From the NCBI RefSeq assembly GCF_002854065.1, contig NZ_CP024147.1: DNA of 64,000 nucleotides; one strand, given 5' to 3'. The notes beneath the pieces are model-generated. The model did not search any database. It was not told where the DNA came from and saw nothing but the letters and a program-made list of their open reading frames with translations. Source of the DNA: Escherichia coli. GTDB taxonomy: Bacteria > Pseudomonadota > Gammaproteobacteria > Enterobacterales > Enterobacteriaceae. Of the stretch, positions 1,908 to 63,846 are shown piece after piece. Numbering within the stretch: position 1 is the stretch's first letter; each line of letters starts with the position of its first letter. A program made the translations under genes and the position numbers.

Positions 1908-2945
1908 ATGTTTTCCGCATTGCGCCACCGTACCGCTGCCCTGGCGCTCGGCGTATGCTTTATTCTCCCCGTACACGCCTCGTCACCTAAACCTGGCGAT
2001 TTTGCTAATACCCAGGCACGACATATTGCTACTTTCTTTCCGGGACGCATGACCGGAACTCCTGCAGAAATGTTATCTGCCGATTATATTCGCCAACAGT
2101 TTCAGCAAATGGGTTATCGCAGTGATATTCGGACATTTAATAGTCGGTATATTTATACCGCCCGCGATAATCGCAAGAGCTGGCATAACGTGACGGGAAG
2201 TACGGTGATTGCCGCTCATGAAGGCAAAGCGCCGCAGCAGATCATCATTATGGCGCATCTGGATACTTACGCCCCGCTGAGCGATGCTGACGCCGATGCC
2301 AATCTCGGCGGGCTGACGTTACAAGGAATGGATGATAACGCCGCAGGTTTAGGTGTCATGCTGGAATTGGCAGAACGCCTGAAAAATACGCCTACCGAGT
2401 ATGGTATTCGATTTGTGGCGACCAGCGGCGAAGAGGAAGGGAAATTAGGCGCTGAGAATTTACTCAAGCGGATGAGTGACACCGAAAAGAAAAATACGCT
2501 GCTGGTGATTAATCTCGATAACTTAATTGTTGGCGATAAATTGTATTTCAACAGCGGTGTAAAAACCCCTGAAGCAGTAAGGAAATTAACGCGCGACAGG
2601 GCGCTGGCAATTGCGCGTAGTCATGGAATTGCCGCAACGACCAATCCGGGTTTGAATAAAAATTATCCGAAAGGCACTGGGTGTTGTAATGACGCAGAAA
2701 TATTCGACAAAGCGGGCATTGCTGTACTTTCGGTGGAAGCGACTAACTGGAATCTTGGGAATAAGGATGGTTATCAGCAACGCGCAAAAACAGCCGCATT
2801 CCCTGCGGGAAATAGCTGGCATGACGTAAGACTGGATAATCAACAGCATATTGATAAGGCACTTCCAGGAAGAATAGAACGTCGCTGCCGTGACGTTATG
2901 CGGATAATGCTACCACTGGTGAAGGAGCTGGCGAAGGCGTCTTGA
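1908..2945 (+). CDS. iap: Alkaline phosphatase isozyme conversion aminopeptidase (Iap), 345 aa
   Basis: ORF translation MFSALRHRTAALALGVCFILPVHASS...; signal peptide; M28-type peptidase. Confidence 0.92.
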   Translation: MFSALRHRTAALALGVCFILPVHASSPKPGDFANTQARHIATFFPGRMTGTPAEMLSADYIRQQFQQMGYRSDIRTFNSRYIYTARDNRKSWHNVTGSTVIAAHEGKAPQQIIIMAHLDTYAPLSDADADANLGGLTLQGMDDNAAGLGVMLELAERLKNTPTEYGIRFVATSGEEEGKLGAENLLKRMSDTEKKNTLLVINLDNLIVGDKLYFNSGVKTPEAVRKLTRDRALAIARSHGIAATTNPGLNKNYPKGTGCCNDAEIFDKAGIAVLSVEATNWNLGNKDGYQQRAKTAAFPAGNSWHDVRLDNQQHIDKALPGRIERRCRDVMRIMLPLVKELAKAS

Positions 2946-3070
2946 TGGGTTTGAAATGATGACTCCCGTGCCTGCAGGAAATCAATGCCACCTGAAACAG
3001 AGAATAAAAAAGGGTGCAGGAGGCCAAACCATCACAATTCAATACGCGGGGTTTTACCCCCGCGTGGTGG

Positions 3071-3223
3071 CTACTTCTTCGATTCGTAAGCGAGAACTGC
3101 CTTAAACTCCATACCACGCTCTCTGATACTCAACTCACATAACGAGTCGCCTACCATGAGCGTGAATCCCAGTACTGTACAACACAGTACTATGATTGCC
3201 ACAAGGGCATATTTTGTTAGCAT
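3071..3223 (-). CDS. hokX: Hok/Gef-family membrane toxin (type I toxin-antitoxin), 50 aa
   Basis: [50 protein letters not shown]; hydrophobic helix plus SLCE...AYES motif typical of Hok; GGAGG Shine-Dalgarno (rc of 3229-3233) 6 nt upstream of ATG 3221-3223. Confidence 0.75.
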
Positions 3224-3330
3224 GTCTTGCCTCCCTGCAAAGAAGAGACTAACATCCGAATTGCTACGTTCGAACGCGAGCCTCAGGTTGATAGAAATAT
3301 CGCCTGGGGCTTTTGTCCATCTGGAACCTC
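3224..3330 (+). ncRNA. sokX: Putative Sok-type antisense RNA opposite the hok mRNA leader (coordinates approximate)
   Basis: Expected from hok/sok locus architecture; exact ends not determinable from sequence alone. Confidence 0.2.
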
Positions 3331-3430
3331 GCGAATGCTTAACGCCAGACAGCCTCAAGCACCCGACGCCATTCTATACCTGATAATTCTTCCAGCGGCG
3401 TTCACGTTTAAAATCAGGAATGCTGCTCGC

Positions 3431-3469
3431 AAAATAAAAACGCCCCCATCATTTCTGACAGAGGCGTTT
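3431..3469 (-). terminator. Intrinsic terminator downstream of cysH (end of cysJIH operon)
   Basis: On minus strand: stem AAACGCC...GGCGUUU followed by U-rich run (A-run 3431-3439 on plus strand). Confidence 0.6.
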
Positions 3470-3486
3470 AATTTATCCGGCAATAT

Positions 3487-4221
3487 TTACCCTTCGTGTA
3501 ACCCACATTCCCTTTTTAAGCCAAAGAAACGCGTTTCTTCTTCCGCCATGCCGGGTTCCCATTTACGGGTTGTATGGGTATCGCCCACCGATAAATATCC
3601 TTCGTCCCATAATGGGTGATATTTCAGGCCATGTTTTTGCAGGTACTGATAAATAGTTCGGTTATCCCAGTCGATAATCGGCAGCACTTTAAATACGCCA
3701 CGCTGAATTGCCAGCACCGGTAAATTGGCGCGGCTGCCGGATTGTTCACGGCGCAGGCCAGCAAACCAGGTTTGCGCATTCAGTTCTTTTAGCGCCCGGT
3801 TCATCGGTTCGACTTTGTTGATGTCATTGTACTTTTCAATGCCTTCAACGCCCTGTTCCCACAGTTTTCCGTAGCGTGCTTCCTGCCAGGCTGCGCTTTC
3901 GGTAGCACGGTACACTTTCAGGTTGAGCTTGAGTTTGTCCGTTAACTCGTCAATAAAGCGGTAGGTTTCCGGGAACAAGTAACCGGTATCGGTGAGGATC
4001 ACTGGAATATCCGGGCGAATCTGATTCACCAGATGCAGGCTCACCGCCGCCTGAATGCCGAAGCTGGAAGAAAGCACATATTCACCGGGCAGATTATCCA
4101 GCGCCCAGGCTACGCGGCCTTCAGCGTCCAGTTTTTCCAGTTGGGCGTTAGTTTCCGCCAGCGCCAGAATGCGATCTACCTTCGGCAGTTCGTTCAGGGC
4201 GTTTAGATCGAGTTTGGACAT
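3487..4221 (-). CDS. cysH: Phosphoadenosine phosphosulfate (PAPS) reductase CysH, 244 aa
   Basis: Translation from [14 protein letters not shown]...; C-terminal ECGLH motif; ORF-track upstream extension judged non-coding. Confidence 0.93.
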
Positions 4222-10678: not shown

Positions 10679-10722
10679 CGGGATAATCGTAACCAATTGA
10701 ATTTGGTTTGATTTGTAGGCCG

Positions 10723-10783
10723 CACGCCACATCCGACATTCAGCGCCTGATGCGACGCTTAACACGTCTTATCAGGCCTACAG
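10723..10783. repeat. REP element pair downstream of ygcP
   Basis: TGTAGGCCGCACGCC... and ...GCCTGATGCGACGCTTAACACGTCTTATCAGGCCTACA. Confidence 0.7.
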
Positions 10784-10825
10784 GTCCCCAGTCCAGAACC
10801 GTAGGCAGGATCATCCGGCAACACG

Positions 10826-11686
10826 TTATTGGCAATCTGCGTGAATGTTTGTCACCAGTGCCTCCAGCACCACTTTCCAGTCATCAACCACGCCAACATC
10901 TGCCTGTGAAAATACCGCTGCGCTGGCGTCATGATTAATCGCCACCACAAACTTGCTATTGCGTACGCCCGCCATTAACGCTGCTGCGCCAGAAGCGCCA
11001 ACAACAATACACACCTCAGGTGCCAGCAGATGTCCGGAAATACCAATCACTTTTTCAGCATCAACGCCACCGTTCATCACTCGCGCCCGACTGTAGCCCA
11101 CTTCGGCTCCCAGCTTTTCTGCCAGCATAGCGATTTCCTGGTTATCTGCCTCTCCGCCCTGCCCCACCACCAACACCCGTCTGGCCTCAGCTAATGGGTC
11201 GCGGGTAACATTTTTCAGGTTCTCTATACTAACCAGCCAGTCCGGAAGCGCACCTGGGACTATGTTCAGTTGCTGCATACCAGAGGGCAAAGTGGCATTT
11301 TTATCTGCTCCCGCCTGGCGCGCCAGGGAAAGACATAGCGGGCGTTTTTCTGTTTGCAGCGTCGCCGTTAGCGCATTTCCCCAGTGGGATTTGCGCACGC
11401 TTACGATTGGAATCTCTAACGAAGTCACCTGGCAGATGCTTGCACCATGTAAACGCCAGGCCAGCCGAGTCGACAGTTCATCGCCAAACGTTCCCGGCGG
11501 AAAGAGAACAACGTTCGCAGGCGTTCGCTGCCACTGTTCCACCAGCGCATCCAGCACCTGTTCCACCACTACGGGCTGTGGTTCTATTTGCCAGTGCGCC
11601 AGGGTACAACCGCTGAAATCCTGCGCCGCCAGCCAGCCCGCTAATGCGGCATTCTCCTGATTTATTGTCACAATTGCGATATTCAT
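10826..11686 (-). CDS. ygcQ: Electron transfer flavoprotein alpha-subunit homologue
   Basis: ORF translation with ETF-alpha FAD-binding C-terminal region; start chosen at MNIAIV. Confidence 0.88.
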   Translation of the reverse strand: MNIAIVTINQENAALAGWLAAQDFSGCTLAHWQIEPQPVVVEQVLDALVEQWQRTPANVVLFPPGTFGDELSTRLAWRLHGASICQVTSLEIPIVSVRKSHWGNALTATLQTEKRPLCLSLARQAGADKNATLPSGMQQLNIVPGALPDWLVSIENLKNVTRDPLAEARRVLVVGQGGEADNQEIAMLAEKLGAEVGYSRARVMNGGVDAEKVIGISGHLLAPEVCIVVGASGAAALMAGVRNSKFVVAINHDASAAVFSQADVGVVDDWKVVLEALVTNIHADCQ

Positions 11687-12462
11687 GGCTGCATCCTTTG
11701 GCGTAAATAGTCCTGCCATAGCTTTTGCGCTTTTTCTGCTACCGTTTGCCCATCAATCAGCGTCGCTCCGCGTCGTTGCTCTGCTCTTGCCAGTTGCAGA
11801 CACTGCATCGCTGGCAATTCGGCAGCAACAGTTTTACGGATAATTTCCGCTTTCCCCGCAGCCATTCGCTGGCGCATTCCCGGTACTGGCAAGGCCACTT
11901 CACCGCACTGACGCACGGCAATCACCGCAGGCAAGCGAATCCGACAACAGCGCAGCCCATGTTCAGTACGCTGTTCGAGGGTGATAAACGGCGCGTCGAG
12001 AGTGAAACGCTCCACCTGGGTGAAGCATGGCCAGCCCAGCATTTCCGCCAGCAAAAATGGCGTTTGCCCATTCTGCCCTTCGCTGCTTTGGCAGCCGGTA
12101 ATTATCAGATCCAGCGGATTCTGACGCTGCCATTCGGCAATATGGCGAGCGACAAATTCCGACGCAAAGCGCAGATCTGCCGCCGTCTCCAGCAATACAG
12201 CTTCCTCAAACCCAAGAGCCATGAGATAGAGCAGCCAGTGTAACGCCCGTTCATCCCCCATGCTCAACGCGGTTAAAGACATCGGCGTACCGTTTTTTCT
12301 CTGCGCCAACAGCAGCGCGGCGGCAGCCTGTTCATCAGCACCGAGTAAACTTCGCAGTAGCGAAACATCCGGTCCGCTATTACCCTGAGCCGCCGCCTGC
12401 CACTCTTTTTCCGCCAGCATTCCGGCATCCGGTTCGGCTTTAAACGCTAACAGAATGTTCAT
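11683..12462 (-). CDS. ygcR: Electron transfer flavoprotein beta-subunit homologue
   Basis: ORF translation; 4-nt overlap with ygcQ start. Confidence 0.88.
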   Translation of the reverse strand: MNILLAFKAEPDAGMLAEKEWQAAAQGNSGPDVSLLRSLLGADEQAAAALLLAQRKNGTPMSLTALSMGDERALHWLLYLMALGFEEAVLLETAADLRFASEFVARHIAEWQRQNPLDLIITGCQSSEGQNGQTPFLLAEMLGWPCFTQVERFTLDAPFITLEQRTEHGLRCCRIRLPAVIAVRQCGEVALPVPGMRQRMAAGKAEIIRKTVAAELPAMQCLQLARAEQRRGATLIDGQTVAEKAQKLWQDYLRQRMQP

Positions 12463-15394: not shown

Positions 15395-16180
15395 TTAGCG
15401 CACTAAATAACCGCCATCAACTACTAATAAATGCCCGTTGACATAATTCGATGCCGGACTTGCGAGGAATACGGCTGCGCCCATTAAATCCTGAGTATCG
15501 CCCCAACGGTTTGCCGGAATATGATCAAGAACGCGCTGATTGGTTTCTGGATTACTACGTGTCGCCAGCGTAATATCTGTTGCATAATAGCCAGGGGCGA
15601 TACCATTTACCTGAATATTATATTGACCTAGTTCATCACAATAAGCTTTGGTGAACCCGGCAAGAGCATGTTTAGTGGCAGAATATGCAGGTGACCATTG
15701 TCCACCTAAGTAAGAGAATAATGAACAGATATTAATTATTTTACCGCTTTTCTGCGGGATCATAATTTTTGCCGCTTCATAGCTTAACTCGAATGCGGCG
15801 GTCAGGTTCACATCAATCATCGGGTCCCAGTCGGCACGACCGAAGTCCAGCACCTTATTCAGCTTACAAATACCGGCATTGTTAACCAGAATATCGACGG
15901 TACCGAAACGTTCGCAACAGGCGGCGATTATCTTCTGCGGCGCGCCTTCTGCGGTGATATCCACCTGCATGAAGTCCACCTCAACACCCTGTTTTTCAAT
16001 CATTTCCTTTGTTTCGCCGTTATCTTTGACGAAGCTAGGAATAAAGACATTTGCGCCTGCTTTGGCCAACGCCATGGCAAATGCCTGGCCTAAACCGCTA
16101 TTCCCGCCGGTAACAATTGCGGTTTTACCTTTCAGGGAGAAAAAATCCATTGAGAACGCATTGAGAGATTCGATTGACAT
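15395..16180 (-). CDS. ygcW: Short-chain dehydrogenase/reductase, 261 aa
   Basis: TGGNSGLGQAFA Rossmann motif; start at MSIESL with GGAG Shine-Dalgarno. Confidence 0.88.
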   Translation of the reverse strand: MSIESLNAFSMDFFSLKGKTAIVTGGNSGLGQAFAMALAKAGANVFIPSFVKDNGETKEMIEKQGVEVDFMQVDITAEGAPQKIIAACCERFGTVDILVNNAGICKLNKVLDFGRADWDPMIDVNLTAAFELSYEAAKIMIPQKSGKIINICSLFSYLGGQWSPAYSATKHALAGFTKAYCDELGQYNIQVNGIAPGYYATDITLATRSNPETNQRVLDHIPANRWGDTQDLMGAAVFLASPASNYVNGHLLVVDGGYLVR

Positions 16181-16499: not shown

Positions 16500-17777
16500 A
16501 TGCAACACAACTCATATCGCCGTTGGATAACCCTCGCGATAATTAGTTTTAGCGGCGGCGTTAGTTTCGACCTGGCTTATTTACGTTATATTTATCAAAT
16601 TCCCATGGCGAAATTTATGGGATTCAGCAATACCGAGATAGGCTTAATAATGAGTACCTTTGGTATTGCTGCTATTATTCTTTATGCCCCCAGCGGCGTT
16701 ATTGCCGATAAATTTTCACACCGCAAAATGATTACTTCCGCGATGATCATTACCGGATTACTGGGTCTGTTAATGGCAACGTATCCACCGCTGTGGGTAA
16801 TGCTCTGTATTCAGGTCGCCTTTGCGATAACAACGATTTTAATGCTGTGGTCGGTGTCGATTAAAGCCGCATCGTTGCTTGGCGATCATAGCGAGCAAGG
16901 GAAAATTATGGGCTGGATGGAAGGGCTGCGCGGCGTCGGTGTAATGTCGCTGGCGGTGTTTACCATGTGGGTCTTTTCTCGCTTTGCACCGGATGACAGC
17001 GCCAGCCTGAAAACGGTCATTATCATCTACAGTGTGGTTTACATCTTGTTGGGGCTTCTGTGCTGGTTTTTTGTTAGCGATAACAACAACCTGCGCAGTG
17101 CCAATAACGAAGAAAAACAGTCATTCCAGCTTAGCGATATCCTGGCCGTTTTGCGTATCAGTACCACCTGGTATTGCAGCATGGTGATTTTTGGTGTCTT
17201 CACCATCTACGCCATTCTGAGTTACTCCACCAACTATCTGACCGAAATGTACGGCATGTCGCTGGTGGCGGCGAGCTACATGGGGATTGTGATCAACAAA
17301 ATCTTCCGCGCGCTGTGCGGCCCACTTGGCGGCATAATCACCACCTACAGCAAAGTGAAATCCCCTACCCGCGTGATCCAAATCCTTTCCGTACTCGGCC
17401 TGCTGGCGTTAACTGCCCTGCTCGTCACGAACTCTAACCCGCAATCGGTCGCGATGGGGATTGGCCTGATTTTACTGCTGGGATTCACCTGTTACGCCTC
17501 ACGCGGGCTGTACTGGGCCTGCCCTGGCGAAGCGAGAACACCGTCTTACATTATGGGCACCACGGTAGGTATTTGCTCGGTGATTGGATTCCTGCCGGAT
17601 GTCTTCGTTTACCCAATTATCGGCCACTGGCAAGACACCCTGCCCGCAGCAGAAGCCTACCGCAATATGTGGCTGATGGGCATGGCGGCGCTTGCCATGG
17701 TGATTGTCTTTACCTTTTTGCTGTTCCAAAAAATTCGTACTGCTGATAGCGCCCCCGCAATGGCTAGCAGCAAGTAA
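16500..17777 (+). CDS. yqcE: MFS-family transporter, 425 aa
   Basis: ORF translation, multi-TM. Confidence 0.9.
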   Translation: MQHNSYRRWITLAIISFSGGVSFDLAYLRYIYQIPMAKFMGFSNTEIGLIMSTFGIAAIILYAPSGVIADKFSHRKMITSAMIITGLLGLLMATYPPLWVMLCIQVAFAITTILMLWSVSIKAASLLGDHSEQGKIMGWMEGLRGVGVMSLAVFTMWVFSRFAPDDSASLKTVIIIYSVVYILLGLLCWFFVSDNNNLRSANNEEKQSFQLSDILAVLRISTTWYCSMVIFGVFTIYAILSYSTNYLTEMYGMSLVAASYMGIVINKIFRALCGPLGGIITTYSKVKSPTRVIQILSVLGLLALTALLVTNSNPQSVAMGIGLILLLGFTCYASRGLYWACPGEARTPSYIMGTTVGICSVIGFLPDVFVYPIIGHWQDTLPAAEAYRNMWLMGMAALAMVIVFTFLLFQKIRTADSAPAMASSK

Positions 17778-17803
17778 GCCAGGAAAATTACAGGAGAAAA
17801 ATC

Positions 17804-19282
17804 ATGTCGAAGAAATACATCATAGGGATTGATGGCGGAAGTCAGAGCACAAAAGTGGTGATGTACGATCTGGAAGGTAACGTGGTTTGCGAAGGCAAAG
17901 GTTTATTGCAGCCGATGCACACGCCAGATGCCGATACCGCAGAACATCCTGACGACGATTTATGGGCATCATTATGTTTTGCCGGTCACGATTTGATGAG
18001 TCAGTTTGCCGGGAATAAAGAAGATATTGTCGGTATTGGTCTGGGATCCATCCGTTGCTGCCGTGCGTTATTGAAAGCCGATGGCACGCCTGCTGCGCCG
18101 TTGATTAGCTGGCAGGATGCACGCGTAACGCGTCCCTACGAACACACTAATCCTGACGTGGCCTATGTCACCTCTTTTTCGGGTTATCTGACGCATCGCT
18201 TAACCGGCGAGTTTAAAGACAATATCGCCAACTATTTTGGTCAGTGGCCGGTGGATTATAAGACCTGGGCATGGAGTGAAGATGCTGCGGTAATGGATAA
18301 GTTTAATATCCCCCGTCATATGCTGTTTGATGTGCAAATGCCTGGCACCGTCCTCGGACATATCACACCACAAGCCGCACTGGCGACACATTTCCCGGCA
18401 GGACTGCCGGTTGTTTGTACCACCAGTGATAAACCGGTAGAAGCTCTGGGGGCCGGATTACTGGATGATGAAACGGCGGTAATTTCTCTTGGCACCTACA
18501 TCGCGCTGATGATGAACGGCAAAGCACTGCCGAAAGATCCGGTGGCGTACTGGCCGATTATGTCTTCTATTCCGCAAACATTGCTGTATGAAGGTTACGG
18601 TATCCGTAAAGGCATGTGGACGGTGAGCTGGCTGCGCGACATGCTAGGCGAGTCGTTAATTCAGGATGCCAGGGCGCAGGATCTTTCACCGGAAGATTTA
18701 CTCAACAAAAAAGCTTCTTGTGTGCCGCCAGACTGTAATGGTCTGATGACGGTGCTGGACTGGCTGACCAATCCGTGGGAACCGTACAAACGCGGGATTA
18801 TGATCGGCTTTGATTCCAGCATGGATTACGCATGGATATATCGTTCGATACTGGAAAGCGTGGCGCTGACGCTGAAGAACAATTACGACAATATGTGTAA
18901 TGAAATGAATCACTTTGCGAAGCATGTGATCATTACTGGCGGCGGTTCGAACAGCGATCTGTTTATGCAGATTTTTGCCGACGTGTTCAACCTTCCGGCA
19001 CGACGTAACGCCATTAACGGTTGTGCAAGTCTGGGGGCAGCGATTAATACCGCGGTAGGTCTGGGGCTATACCCGGATTACGCAACGGCTGTCGATAAAA
19101 TGGTTCGCGTGAAAGATATCTTTATACCGATTGAGAGCAATGCCAAACGCTACGACGCGATGAATAAAGGCATTTTCAAAGACCTAACCAAACATACTGA
19201 TGTGATTCTGAAAAAATCGTATGAAGTGATGCATGGGGAATTGGGAAATGCGGATTCGATCCAGAGCTGGTCGAATGCGTAA
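17804..19282 (+). CDS. ygcE: FGGY-family carbohydrate kinase, 492 aa
   Basis: ORF translation; N-terminal IGIDGGSQSTK sugar-kinase motif. Confidence 0.9.
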   Translation: MSKKYIIGIDGGSQSTKVVMYDLEGNVVCEGKGLLQPMHTPDADTAEHPDDDLWASLCFAGHDLMSQFAGNKEDIVGIGLGSIRCCRALLKADGTPAAPLISWQDARVTRPYEHTNPDVAYVTSFSGYLTHRLTGEFKDNIANYFGQWPVDYKTWAWSEDAAVMDKFNIPRHMLFDVQMPGTVLGHITPQAALATHFPAGLPVVCTTSDKPVEALGAGLLDDETAVISLGTYIALMMNGKALPKDPVAYWPIMSSIPQTLLYEGYGIRKGMWTVSWLRDMLGESLIQDARAQDLSPEDLLNKKASCVPPDCNGLMTVLDWLTNPWEPYKRGIMIGFDSSMDYAWIYRSILESVALTLKNNYDNMCNEMNHFAKHVIITGGGSNSDLFMQIFADVFNLPARRNAINGCASLGAAINTAVGLGLYPDYATAVDKMVRVKDIFIPIESNAKRYDAMNKGIFKDLTKHTDVILKKSYEVMHGELGNADSIQSWSNA

Positions 19283-19328
19283 GTGAGGAAGGCCGGGCGG
19301 GAAACAGCACGGCCTGAACATACCTGAA

Positions 19329-19357
19329 TGGTTATCCCCGCTGACGCGGGGAACTCT
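19329..19357 (-). CRISPR. Solitary degenerate type I-E CRISPR repeat; AT-rich leader-like sequence follows at about 19358-19500
   Basis: rc of TGGTTATCCCCGCTGACGCGGGGAACTC is GAGTTCCCCGCGTCAGCGGGGATAACCA, versus I-E consensus GAGTTCCCCGCGCCAGCGGGGATAAACCG: 2 mismatches and 1 deletion; no second repeat found. Confidence 0.6.
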
Positions 19358-19694
19358 CTAAACATAACCTATTATTAATTAATGATTTTTTAAGCCAGTC
19401 ACAATCTACCAACTTTACAGTATCACACAAACAACACATCCATCATGTTAAAGAGCACTTAACCCATTGATTAAAAAGGTAAATATTTAAAATAACTCTA
19501 TACAAACTAAAATCTACCAAACTTTACCGCAATAATTTTCACTCCAGCGAAAAATTAACGCCACAGAATTTGTAGAGAATGATAATGATTAGTTCAGGAT
19601 GGGCAAAATGGAGGTTTTTCAGAGACGACAAAGAATATAAATGAGTAGAAGTCTTTACAGGTTCCACCCATTTATAACGCTTATAAATGTTTAA

Positions 19695-20366
19695 TCAGGC
19701 AATATTTAAATATTTATGGGTTTGCATCGACAAACGCCAATTACGCGCAATGCAGGTTTCAATGCACAAACGTGTGGCATCATCCTTTTGGCTAATCGGC
19801 TGCAGTGCAATGACTCGCGGTTTATCATCGGTCAGCGTCGCCAAAAGTTCATCCAGTGCTTCAATATCACGTACGCGTCCCACTGGATGCTTGATTTCGT
19901 TGGCTCGCTCCAGTGCCTGTGACAACACTTCATAGCCGCCGCGCATGTTCAGCTTTGGCGATACGGTAACCCAGGTATTCGGTGTACAGCGTACTTCATG
20001 AGTACCACTGGTTTCGATCTGGCAGCTAAAACCGTTCTTTTCGAGCAGGTCAGTCAGTGGTAGCAAATCATGAATGCAAGGCTCACCACCCGTAATCACC
20101 ACATGCCGCGCGGTGTATCCCTGGCGACCAATGACAGCCAGCAAGTCTTCACTGCTCGCCGCCCCCCACTTATCACTCTCTTTGGTCTTCGCCAGAATGC
20201 TGAAAAGGGAGACTTCCCGATCCTCAAGCTTTTCCCAGGTGTGTTTGGTGTCGCACCAGGCACAGCCAACCGGGCATCCCTGTAAACGAATAAAAATGGC
20301 GGGGACGCCGGTAAAGTAACCCTCACCTTGCAGGGTCTGGAACATCTCGTTAATCGGGTACTGCAT
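19695..20366 (-). CDS. queE: 7-carboxy-7-deazaguanine synthase QueE (radical SAM), 223 aa
   Basis: ORF translation; CPVGCAWCDT radical-SAM-like cysteine motif. Confidence 0.93.
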   Translation of the reverse strand: MQYPINEMFQTLQGEGYFTGVPAIFIRLQGCPVGCAWCDTKHTWEKLEDREVSLFSILAKTKESDKWGAASSEDLLAVIGRQGYTARHVVITGGEPCIHDLLPLTDLLEKNGFSCQIETSGTHEVRCTPNTWVTVSPKLNMRGGYEVLSQALERANEIKHPVGRVRDIEALDELLATLTDDKPRVIALQPISQKDDATRLCIETCIARNWRLSMQTHKYLNIA

Positions 20367-20520: not shown

Positions 20521-20692
20521 ATGAAAAAGGATTTAAACATGCTCAGGATATTCATCGTAATTATATTTATTTTCAATTTATCAGGCTGTGGATATAACGA
20601 TATTCAAACCTATGATGAGCAGGTTAACGCCTCCTGGTCTGAGGTATTAAATCAATATCAACGTCGCGCCGATCTTATTCCTAATCTTGTCG
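20521..20692 (+). pseudogene. lemA: LemA-family lipoprotein gene truncated after about 57 codons by IS1
   Basis: MKKDLNMLRIFIVIIFIFNLSGCGYNDIQTYDEQVNASWSEVLNQYQRRADLIPNLV then IS1 end; lipobox LSGC. Confidence 0.7.
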
Positions 20693-20747
20693 GGTGATGC
20701 TGCCAACTTACTGATTTAGTGTATGATGGTGTTTTTGAGGTGCTCCA

Positions 20748-21023
20748 GTGGCTTCTGTTTCTATCAGCTGTCCCTCCTGTTCAGCTACTGACGGGGTGGT
20801 GCGTAACGGCAAAAGCACTGCCGGACATCAGCGCTATCTCTGCTCTCACTGCCGTAAAACATGGCAACTGCAGTTCACTTACACCGCTTCTCAACCCGGT
20901 ACGCACCAGAAAATCATTGATATGGCCATGAATGGCGTTGGATGCCGGGCAACCGCCCGCATTATGGGCGTTGGCCTCAACACGATTTTCCGCCATTTAA
21001 AAAACTCAGGCCGCAGTCGGTAA
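20748..21023 (+). CDS. insA: IS1 InsA, 91 aa
   Basis: [43 protein letters not shown]... Confidence 0.95.
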
Positions 21024-21445
21024 CCTCGCGCATACAGCCGGGCAGTGACGTCATCGTCTGCGCGGAAATGGACGAACAGTGGGGATACGTCGGGGCTAAA
21101 TCGCGCCAGCGCTGGCTGTTTTACGCGTATGACAGGCTCCGGAAGACGGTTGTTGCGCACGTATTCGGTGAACGCACTATGGCGACGCTGGGGCGTCTTA
21201 TGAGCCTGCTGTCACCCTTTGACGTGGTGATATGGATGACGGATGGCTGGCCGCTGTATGAATCCCGCCTGAAGGGAAAGCTGCACGTAATCAGCAAGCG
21301 ATATACGCAGCGAATTGAGCGGCATAACCTGAATCTGAGGCAGCACCTGGCACGGCTGGGACGGAAGTCGCTGTCGTTCTCAAAATCGGTGGAGCTGCAT
21401 GACAAAGTCATCGGGCATTATCTGAACATAAAACACTATCAATAA
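20942..21445 (+). CDS. insB: IS1 InsB frame (expressed as InsAB' by -1 frameshift at the TTTAAAAAAC motif)
   Basis: 167-aa InsB translation; slippery A-run near 21000. Confidence 0.9.
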
Positions 21446-21462
21446 GTTGGAGTCATTACCTG

Positions 21463-40317: not shown

Positions 40318-40686
40318 AATAAAAAAAGGGAGCACTGTATTCACAGTGCTCCCGGTTCGTTTCGCAGCATTCCAGCTACATTTGTTGCTCCCTGCTCATC
40401 CTTGACAACTTTTCCTCTGGCCTTGCGGCCAATCGTTCATCCTGAACTATTGCTTCCTGCTCACACCACCCCGATGTGATACTTCATCCTGAAGTGTCCC
40501 TGGCCTTCCTGACCCACCGAATCATCCTGACCGGTTCTCATTCTCCATCCTGGAGGTGTCCTTTAACGCGTCCTGCGTCATCCTCTTCGCTTCATCCAGA
40601 AGCCTTTCCCTGAAACACCATCCTGGTGTGTCCTTCAGAAGTGTCATCATCCTGATGTTCACTTCGTTGTCTGACTCCCTGTCGAC
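40318..40686 (-). ncRNA. csrB: CsrB small RNA (CsrA-sequestering), about 369 nt
   Basis: Minus strand starts GUCGACAGGGAGUCAGACAACG..., carries well over a dozen CAGGA(U/A)G-type GGA motifs (seen as CATCCTG on plus strand), ends in hairpin plus U-run at 40321-40358. Confidence 0.92.
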
Positions 40687-58857: not shown

Positions 58858-59063
58858 ACTTCCTGAGCCGGAACGAAAAGTTTTATCGGAATGCGTGTTC
58901 TGGTGAACTTTTGGCTTACGGTTGTGATGTTGTGTTGTTGTGTTTGCAATTGGTCTGCGATTCAGACCATGGTAGCAAAGCTACCTTTTTTCACTTCCTG
59001 TACATTTACCCTGTCTGTCCATAGTGATTAATGTAGCACCGCCTAATTGCGGTGCTTTTTTTT
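58858..59063 (+). ncRNA. gcvB: GcvB small RNA, about 206 nt
   Basis: ACTTCCTGAGCCGGAACGAAAAGTTTTATCGGAATGCGTGTTCTGGTGAACTTTTGG... with GU-rich TGTTGTGTTGTTGTGTTTG tract and terminator GCACCGCCTAATTGCGGTGC plus T8; divergent from gcvA. Confidence 0.92.
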
Positions 59064-62056: not shown

Positions 62057-62156
62057 TGCCTGATGCGCTACGCTTATCAGGCCTACATAACTCCTGCAAT
62101 ATTTTGGATTTGCATGATTTGTAGGCCGGATAAGGCGTTCACGCCGCATCCGGCAT
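62057..62156. repeat. Pair of REP elements (BIME-like) between tcdA and mltA
   Basis: GCCTGATGCGCTACGCTTATCAGGCCTACA and TGTAGGCCGGATAAGGCGTTCACGCCGCATCCGGCA. Confidence 0.75.
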
Positions 62157-63548: not shown

Positions 63549-63625
<77 letters not shown>

Positions 63626-63658
63626 ATTAAAATTTGATGAAGTAAAGCAGTACGGTGA

Positions 63659-63735
<77 letters not shown>

Positions 63736-63769
63736 ATCAAAATTTGATGAAGTAAAAGCAGTACGGTGA

Positions 63770-63846
<77 letters not shown>

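Follow-up and report, generated by a model that had tools for sequence, protein, structure and literature searches.

The interval between iap and cysH in this Escherichia coli DNA is free of CRISPR-Cas: no Cascade, Cas3 or Cas1-Cas2 is encoded at the site, and the two genes are separated by only 541 bp (positions 2946-3486 of the 64,000-nucleotide stretch analyzed here, referred to as the window). We are highly confident that this interval corresponds to the CRISPR-free layout known as “arrangement B”, carried as an old allele in an O157:H7-like background rather than in a B2 background. The layout has already been described in the literature and is common and ordinary, since about one-fifth of complete E. 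coli genomes have the same one.

From the start of the window, the gene order is cysN and cysD (minus strand), iap (plus strand), the 541-bp gap, cysH (minus strand), cysI, cysJ, queD and the ygc genes. We take the product of iap to be the alkaline phosphatase isozyme conversion aminopeptidase. The features that delimit the gap are as follows.

1908-2945, plus strand: iap, a 345-amino-acid ORF, so named in the annotation of the colinear genome CUWW06; forms the left flank of the CRISPR-I locus
2946-2956, no strand assigned: iap-side shared block, 11 bp common to every E. coli genome; end of the iap-side homology to cas-positive genomes
2957-3004, no strand assigned: 48-bp segment found only in the cas-less allele; O157:H7 has 9,062 bp there (array, leader, cas-E1 and cas3 upstream region)
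3438-3469, minus strand: cysJIH intrinsic terminator, with a stem of 14 pairs and then TTATTTTG; the repeat search picked up the same inverted repeat
3487-4221, minus strand: cysH, likewise annotated in CUWW06; forms the right flank of the CRISPR-I locus

Read across the gap, the order is iap, the 11 shared bp, the 48-bp allele-specific stretch, the toxin–antitoxin pair hokX/sokX, the cysJIH terminator, which starts 18 nt past the cysH stop codon, and cysH. The ORF list shows a longer ORF in the same frame as cysH.

Both K-12 and O157:H7 carry an array and eight cas genes between iap and cysH. A type I-E CRISPR-I locus consists of an array of 29-bp type 2 repeats beside iap, together with a leader and cas3, cse1, cse2, cas7, cas5, cas6e, cas1 and cas2; neither the array nor the leader and cas genes are present between iap and cysH in the window. 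Searches of the whole 64 kb with the I-E consensus repeat and with the I-F repeat, allowing up to three mismatches, returned no match to either, and no repeat families were found in 2800-3600. Sixteen Cas proteins, eight translated from the O157:H7 locus (variant E1) and eight from the K-12 locus (variant E2), gave only chance matches to the window in tblastn (E of at least 0.018, at most 26 bits). When the complete CRISPR-cas intervals of O157:H7 and K-12 were compared with the window by blastn, nothing was found at iap–cysH, the sole match being at 19324-19473. DNA similarity to the CRISPR2.1 leader was likewise not found at the iap–cysH site, and there is no insertion sequence in the 541-bp gap.

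These data bear out a preliminary description of the same DNA, which had set K-12-like E. coli, with a CRISPR I array and cas genes between iap and cysH (as seen in K-12 and O157:H7), against a spacing of 541 bp here, a value that the ORF coordinates 2945 and 3487 confirm. The description had assigned to the gap a hok-family toxin gene and the cysJIH terminator, both of which were recovered (as a Pfam HOK_GEF match and the 14-pair stem), and had reported no 29-bp I-E repeat and no cas coding sequence, in agreement with the repeat searches, tblastn and blastn. Its conclusion that the I-E interference and adaptation machinery is missing at this site also holds, as no cas gene, repeat or remnant was found there.

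The single blastn match in the window corresponds to a second, separate site.

19329-19473, plus strand: CRISPR-II remnant between ygcE and queE, a solitary I-E repeat GGTTATCCCCGCTGACGCGGGGAACTC (about 19330-19356) followed by AT-rich leader-like sequence

The I-E palindrome core occurs once in the window, at this position, and blastn against the O157 and K-12 CRISPR-cas intervals gave 96% identity to their repeats and 70% over 147 nt of repeat plus leader. The repeat carries a 1-nt deletion relative to the consensus and is accompanied by no spacer; because of the deletion it was missed by the consensus-repeat search, and it was recovered with the palindrome core and blastn. The preliminary description had referred to arrays in this DNA. 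One I-E repeat with a leader-like flank was indeed found, but the plural was an overstatement for a solitary repeat lacking one nucleotide. This lone repeat is a fossil, with no Cas6e encoded at iap–cysH to process it and no spacer to guide interference. Given this, and given that no cas gene lies at the iap–cysH site, the strain lacks both interference and adaptation of type I-E, unless cas genes sit elsewhere in the genome.

Another cas operon elsewhere, either type I-F at clpA-infA or plasmid-borne, could supply immunity, in which case the strain would not be CRISPR-defective overall. Some strains without I-E cas genes do carry type I-F, and a survey of urinary isolates found I-F in 7%, mostly B2 (PMC12736100). 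The nearest complete genome, CUWW06, was used as a proxy for the remaining genome of the strain, and its two canonical cas sites were inspected. The clpA-serW-infA site of CUWW06 has no cas gene, only a two-repeat orphan I-F array with one good and one degenerate repeat, so that the preliminary suggestion to look for a type I-F system elsewhere has an answer at that site of the proxy genome. Moreover, the window holds no I-F repeat, and the lone I-E repeat would in any case be of no use to I-F proteins. Immunity from a second cas operon is thus quite unlikely.

What the gap does hold, besides the terminator, is hokX/sokX, which is apparently a complete and intact type I toxin–antitoxin module. 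Its elements are listed below.

3005-3364, minus strand: hokX mRNA unit of about 360 nt, with a 5′ tac-like element, Sok target, mok-like ORF, hokX, GC hairpin, 3′ fbi-like element and U-run
3046-3066, no strand assigned: GC-rich hairpin CGCGGGGTTTTACCCCCGCG just past the hokX stop codon, a hairpin in the predicted fold and of a known IS186 target type
3071-3223, minus strand: hokX, a putative 50-amino-acid Hok/Gef membrane toxin; Pfam HOK_GEF (PF01848) match with E of 6.3e-10 over residues 5-46
3196-3316, plus strand: putative sokX antisense RNA gene, with a promoter-like TTGCCA-16-TAGCAT and extended TG (3196-3223) and a predicted transcript of about 3230-3316
3208-3364, minus strand: hit to the full length (1-157) of the Rfam model RF01794 “sok”, scoring 105.3 bits (gathering score 59; E of 7e-25)
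3217-3255, minus strand: mok-like leader ORF of 12 codons, beginning in the Sok-target region, with a UAA stop that overlaps the hokX start (ACAUGCUAA)

The hokX protein corresponds to RefSeq WP_000956458.1 (“Hok/Gef family protein”) and is identical in CUWW06, O157:H7 and EcN_Sk. Its scores against the NCBIfam models HokA (53 bits, cutoff 89) and Hok (39.5 bits, cutoff 73) both fall below the curated cutoffs, and it is for this reason best classed as a Hok-family member and not as a HokA equivalog. A 95-amino-acid ORF at 3071-3358, in frame with hok, was judged to be a chance frame; the Rfam alignment and the Shine-Dalgarno sequence GGGAGG favor the 50-amino-acid start.

The RF01794 match lies on the hok-sense strand and so marks the leader of the hok mRNA. 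The 5′ end of the predicted mRNA was set by the start of the Rfam model, both transcript ends being predictions, and the 3′ U-run coincides with the start of the O157 homology. When the minus strand from 3364 to 3005 was folded, 5′ GGGUGC..GAGGCU paired with 3′ GGCCUC..GCACCC, with a minimum free energy (MFE) of −140.5 kcal/mol (z = −5.2; none of 100 shuffled sequences folded as well), and this closure of the tac-like and fbi-like ends appears in both the MFE and the centroid predicted structures. Closure of the mRNA ends by tac and fbi is typical of hok mRNAs. Strain variants at the tac/fbi pairs are one-sided and keep the pairs (G-C to G-U, G-U to G-C), and no compensatory double changes in this pairing were observed among the compared strains. 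A sigma-70 consensus promoter for the hok mRNA was not found on the minus strand; by eye, TAGAAT about 7 nt upstream of the modeled 5′ end is the best candidate.

The case for sokX is at the level of consensus features, namely the promoter-like site, which is the sole sigma-70-like site in 2850-3550, and a terminator-like 3′ hairpin followed by UUUUGU in the predicted RNA, whose ends (3230-3316) are likewise predictions. This RNA folds with an MFE of −28.2 kcal/mol (z = −3.3), while the fold of the range 3229-3305 was uninformative (z = −0.07). The predicted RNA is complementary to the start region of the mok-like ORF, for which a function is suggested by analogy with mok of plasmid R1. B2-type alleles have UGA instead of UAA as the stop codon of the mok-like ORF; the substitution is silent in the hokX frame and leaves the overlap between the two frames intact. 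Because the gap would encode a sokX antisense RNA and a 12-codon mok-like ORF besides hokX, the hok unit appears to be a complete module. Judging from this anatomy and from what is known of the family, pairing between the 5′ and 3′ ends of the hokX mRNA would hold the message inactive, and the SokX antisense RNA would block translation of the mok-like ORF and, hence, of the Hok toxin.

The hok/sok system of plasmid R1 is a type I toxin–antitoxin system that acts in post-segregational killing, and its mok frame has about 70 codons. The window module has the attributes expected of the family, with a Hok/Gef toxin, a structured leader that fits the Rfam model and predicted 5′-3′ closure of the mRNA, and it further resembles the R1 system in having the promoter of the putative antisense gene inside the start of hok and an upstream frame that overlaps the hok start. 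It differs in being chromosomal and in its leader ORF, which has 12 codons and stops just inside hok. Chromosomal counterparts at the same site have been described: an intact hokX homologue was reported at the cysH-iap region of the B2 strain NRG857c (PMC7232551), and in the study of urinary isolates, from which the name “sokX” for the gene adjoining cysH is taken, hok and sokX were found beside cysH in 90% of isolates, with the rest having sokX alone, as in K-12 (PMC12736100). The window carries the same gene in the same position beside cysH, intact and without an insertion sequence. While EcN_Sk encodes an identical Hok protein, its hok unit is only about 95.5% identical to that of the window at the nucleotide level, as against 99.75% for O157:H7.

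The place of this interval among known variants of the locus can be judged from the work of Almendros et al. (2014, mBio, PMC3903273), who defined nine arrangements of the CRISPR-I locus. Among these, arrangement A carries cas-E1, C is B with an added insertion sequence, G has lost cas through recombination between insertion sequences, and H carries cas-E2 and is without hok. The authors propose that B arose from A by deletion of the IG6–IG3 interval, an order they judge most parsimonious; they identify the GC-rich boundary between IG2 and IG3 as a place where IS186 inserts, and they describe the exchange of whole leader-cas modules at the locus, for example E2 replacing E1. We infer the correspondence between window coordinates and these IG numbers; the published cysH-F primer matches exactly at 3422-3442. 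The window agrees with the published arrangement B in having iap and cysH as flanks, in lacking the entire CRISPR-Cas cassette and any insertion sequence, and in keeping hok sok beside cysH with short intergenic blocks on both sides, including the cysH-side blocks (3005-3070 is common to E1 genomes). It departs from the published model, which makes B a deletion of A, in that none of the A-type loci examined has a counterpart of its 48 bp. Its background also departs from the usual one, being O157:H7-like with an O157-like hok allele, whereas the allele is commonest in B2.

Comparison with genomes representing the other arrangements places the differences precisely. O157:H7 (cas-E1, arrangement A) has the same flanks and shares the whole hok unit, its 9,062 bp standing in place of 2957-3004. 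K-12 (cas-E2, arrangement H) has the same flanks and the same cysH-side conserved region; there, 9,681 bp replace 2957-3220 and the hok ORF is lost. JP538, which belongs with the IS-associated arrangements D-G, resembles the window in having no cas-E between iap and cysH and in keeping hok. It differs in having an IS421/IS186-family element between an array remnant and hok, so that homology starts at window position 3049, inside the GC hairpin, and in keeping a degenerate terminal repeat beside iap, whereas the window has neither an insertion sequence nor a repeat at the site. The hairpin at 3046-3066 is accordingly the breakpoint of other, IS-mediated arrangements. In a megablast search of 5,426 genomes, E1-type cas3 was found in 2,786 and E2-type in 1,177; about 27% of complete genomes have neither type, and about 20% have the exact layout of the window.

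The preliminary description had placed the junction within 2946-3070 and had proposed aligning the interval with cas-positive and cas-negative E. coli genomes. That alignment gives breakpoints at 2956 and 3005 and narrows the junction to 2957-3004, which is a 48-bp segment rather than a simple fusion point. On the iap side, matches to every sampled cas-positive genome extend no further than 2956 (position 197 of a query spanning 2760-3010), with the same end against K-12 and O157. On the hok side, homology to O157:H7 restarts at 3005, and that to K-12 restarts only at 3221 because the K-12 hok ORF has been lost; across the 5,426 complete E. coli genomes, the sampled cas-positive genomes resume matching at 3005, 3049 or 3221. 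The 48-bp segment is present in 1,130 of the 5,418 genomes that match the query, and the whole junction is found unbroken in 1,105 of the 5,426 complete genomes. In EcN_Sk, PapRG-06-5, AST215 and TB06052 the segment is colinear but substituted, with 4 to 6 positions differing between lineages. Outside E. coli, the same iap-48 bp-hok-cysH layout recurs in a cryptic species, Escherichia sp. E1V33, where the locus shows 92.8% identity to the window across 7.4 kb; this genome was the only find of an exact-pattern scan of one genome per bacterial species, a method to which diverged copies in E. albertii, E. fergusonii or Salmonella are invisible.

The 48 bp resemble nothing else examined at the locus. 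Local alignment to the I-E consensus repeat was no better than to shuffled sequence (best p = 0.08), there was no significant similarity to the degenerate terminal repeat of K-12, and six complete iap-to-hok intervals (four from E1 genomes, one from an E2 genome and one from an IS-type genome) aligned to the segment no better than shuffled sequence did. These alignments give no support for an origin as a decayed repeat, a spacer or cas3-upstream DNA. The idea that the segment is a copy of another E. coli locus was rejected, since a search of the 5,426 genomes hit essentially a single site in each genome (5,419 places in 5,418 records).

The strain background was assessed from sequence identity. 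Over 24 kb of core sequence (25000-49000), identity to the window falls from 99.2% in O157:H7 through 98.7% in K-12 to about 98.1% in strains such as APEC O18. A B2 background was rejected because identity is lowest to the APEC O18-like strains and highest to O157:H7. Around the junction, 396 nt of window 3000-3400 aligned to O157:H7 (3005-3400) with one mismatch (99.75%), whereas the iap side (1900-2956) is 98.5% identical to K-12 and 96.3% to O157:H7. Over 2700-3700, the window is 100% identical to CUWW06 and 99.6-99.9% identical to three other genomes, while genomes like those of EcN and UPEC are only about 96.3-96.6% identical. The same junction occurs in the complete genomes CUWW06, XJ34, XJ6-3, GDSC2227PM and 100416, and a comparison of CUWW06 with the window over about 46 kb shows 7 mismatches besides differences linked to IS1. 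These data suggest a background that is O157:H7-like and mosaic around the junction; it would be phylogroup E-like, an assignment that comes from the 24 kb of identity and not from a typing scheme.

On the reading favored here, the cas-less junction would be an old allele and not a fresh deletion: several E. coli lineages, as well as a separate Escherichia species, share its breakpoints and its 48 bp. The substitutions in the 48 bp across lineages and the copy in E1V33 suggest that the allele is old, or moves between lineages, rather than having been made in this strain. A recent, lineage-specific deletion of the array and cas-E1 from an O157:H7-like ancestor with arrangement A would be consistent with the near identity of the hok-cysH side to O157:H7 as far as 3005, with a core background closest to O157:H7, and with the finding that only a handful of complete genomes carry the exact allele at 99.6% identity or more. 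Nevertheless, the same two breakpoints and the 48 bp recur in more than 1,100 other genomes and in E1V33, the differences within the 48 bp point to long separate histories, and iap is only 96.3% identical to that of O157. Moreover, the 48 bp are absent from O157:H7 and three other E1 genomes, so deletion of O157-like DNA cannot produce the junction, and a recent deletion is very unlikely. An assembly artefact, with the array collapsed and the cas region dropped, has nothing specific in its favor beyond the tendency of CRISPR arrays to collapse in short-read assemblies. A collapse would keep at least one repeat and would not drop 8 kb of unique cas genes, and the identical junction is found in the five complete genomes named above, which are independently sourced. 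With the junction contiguous in so many genomes and perfectly matched in CUWW06, the misassembly that the preliminary description had allowed for can be dismissed as having a negligible probability.

Change between arrangements A and B may have run either way, as the 48 bp have no counterpart in the A-, H- or IS-type loci examined. The breakpoints at 2956 and 3005 fit the derivation of B by deletion, yet none of the six non-B loci examined contains the 48 bp, and a clean deletion of a present-day A allele, in which the segment has no counterpart, would not give this junction. The segment may be what is left of an older array end after decay, filler introduced by a deletion, or a sign that change ran in the reverse direction, with the cas-less layout and its 48 bp as the older, empty site into which an array, leader and cas-E1 were inserted, replacing the 48 bp. 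Insertion into an older site is consistent with the confinement of the 48 bp to cas-less genomes, with their lack of detectable relation to repeats, spacers or the cas-positive interval, with the presence of the allele in a second Escherichia species, and with the exchange of leader-cas modules, E2 for E1, described by Almendros et al. (PMC3903273). However, the cas-E trees in that paper include S. enterica, E. albertii and E. fergusonii as outgroup species, so these carry I-E cas genes, and several Klebsiella papers put I-E at iap-cysH; presence of the system therefore looks older than the genus. Almendros et al. judged deletion from A to B most parsimonious, and 48 bp of non-coding DNA left over from the older state could have diverged until they were unrecognizable (similarity to the repeat, p = 0.08). 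Insertion into an empty site is on balance rather doubtful. We also entertain, tentatively, a broader possibility in which the cas-less allele is independent and very old, either an ancestral empty site or the product of an ancient single replacement that left 48 bp of unrelated filler; it would have persisted alongside cas-positive alleles across phylogroups and in at least one other Escherichia species, and would have been spread by recombination with crossovers near the junction.

For the strain itself, type I-E interference or spacer acquisition from the iap–cysH locus is not possible. The window adds one non-B2 example, in an O157:H7-like background, to a well-documented polymorphism, and the wider interest of the locus is evolutionary only, its value otherwise being for annotation. 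In that evolutionary context, the 48-bp segment may serve as a marker for distinguishing a single ancient loss of CRISPR-Cas from insertion into an empty site.

Between ygcE and queE, the site of the CRISPR-II locus, the window retains a small remnant:

19329-19473: solitary I-E repeat (GGTTATCCCCGCTGACGCGGGGAACTC) with AT-rich leader-like sequence, ygcE-queE intergenic region

This interval has no spacer and is a fossil left by the CRISPR-II locus. The repeat was overlooked by the consensus search because it carries a 1-nt deletion. In strain M9 (L015 about 17485-19878), a large deletion between the two CRISPR loci has taken away most of the stretch from ygcN to ygcE. What comes after queD there is a truncated FGGY kinase gene, with the CRISPR-II array immediately behind it. 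A small CRISPR array of type I-F is found in CUWW06, the nearest complete E. coli genome:

L011 14014-14100: orphan I-F mini-array in clpA-serW, made up of a 33-bp spacer with two repeats, a near-perfect one of 28 bp and a degenerate one

There are no cas genes beside this mini-array.

The window and CUWW06 also differ in their IS1 content. The window carries one copy of the element inside a gene of the LemA family:

about 20690-21460: IS1 copy
20748-21023: InsA-like ORF of this copy
20942-21445: InsB-like ORF of this copy

Directly after this IS1 (junction 21460/21461), the window lacks 1.9 kb that are present in CUWW06 (L003 22238-24165, genes encoding TPM-domain proteins), in what looks like an IS1-adjacent deletion. 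An additional IS1 lies within ygcW of CUWW06, at window position 16035, and is not found in the window.

At the iap–cysH locus, TB06052 (an E. coli strain from fresh water in the Galapagos) and the cryptic Escherichia sp. E1V33 have nearly identical junction segments, a short sequence specific to the cas-less allele. The TB06052 segment is unlike both the window type and the type found in the cas-less E. coli EcN_Sk/AST215. This pattern hints either at interspecies exchange of the locus or at TB06052 being a misassigned strain. A further feature follows hokX:

3046-3066: GC hairpin after hokX, breakpoint of the IS421/IS186-associated arrangement in JP538 (L012 about 10718-12022)

In a spread sample of genomes, matching begins exactly at window position 3049 in about 12%.

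Elsewhere, the window holds tRNA genes and ordinary sRNA genes of E. coli, the latter with full-length Rfam matches:

40318-40677: CsrB (384 bits)
58858-59063: GcvB (199 bits)
62079-62121: ES036 sRNA (46.5 bits)
63549-63846: three tandem tRNA-Met (CAT) genes, period 110 bp, mutual identity 98%

Rfam also yields a match at hokX:

3208-3364, - strand: RF01794, a model named "sok antitoxin"; hok-sense strand, ending in the hok start region
+ strand: candidate promoter and terminator of sokX

Any annotation copied from the RF01794 match would assign the antitoxin RNA to the wrong strand.
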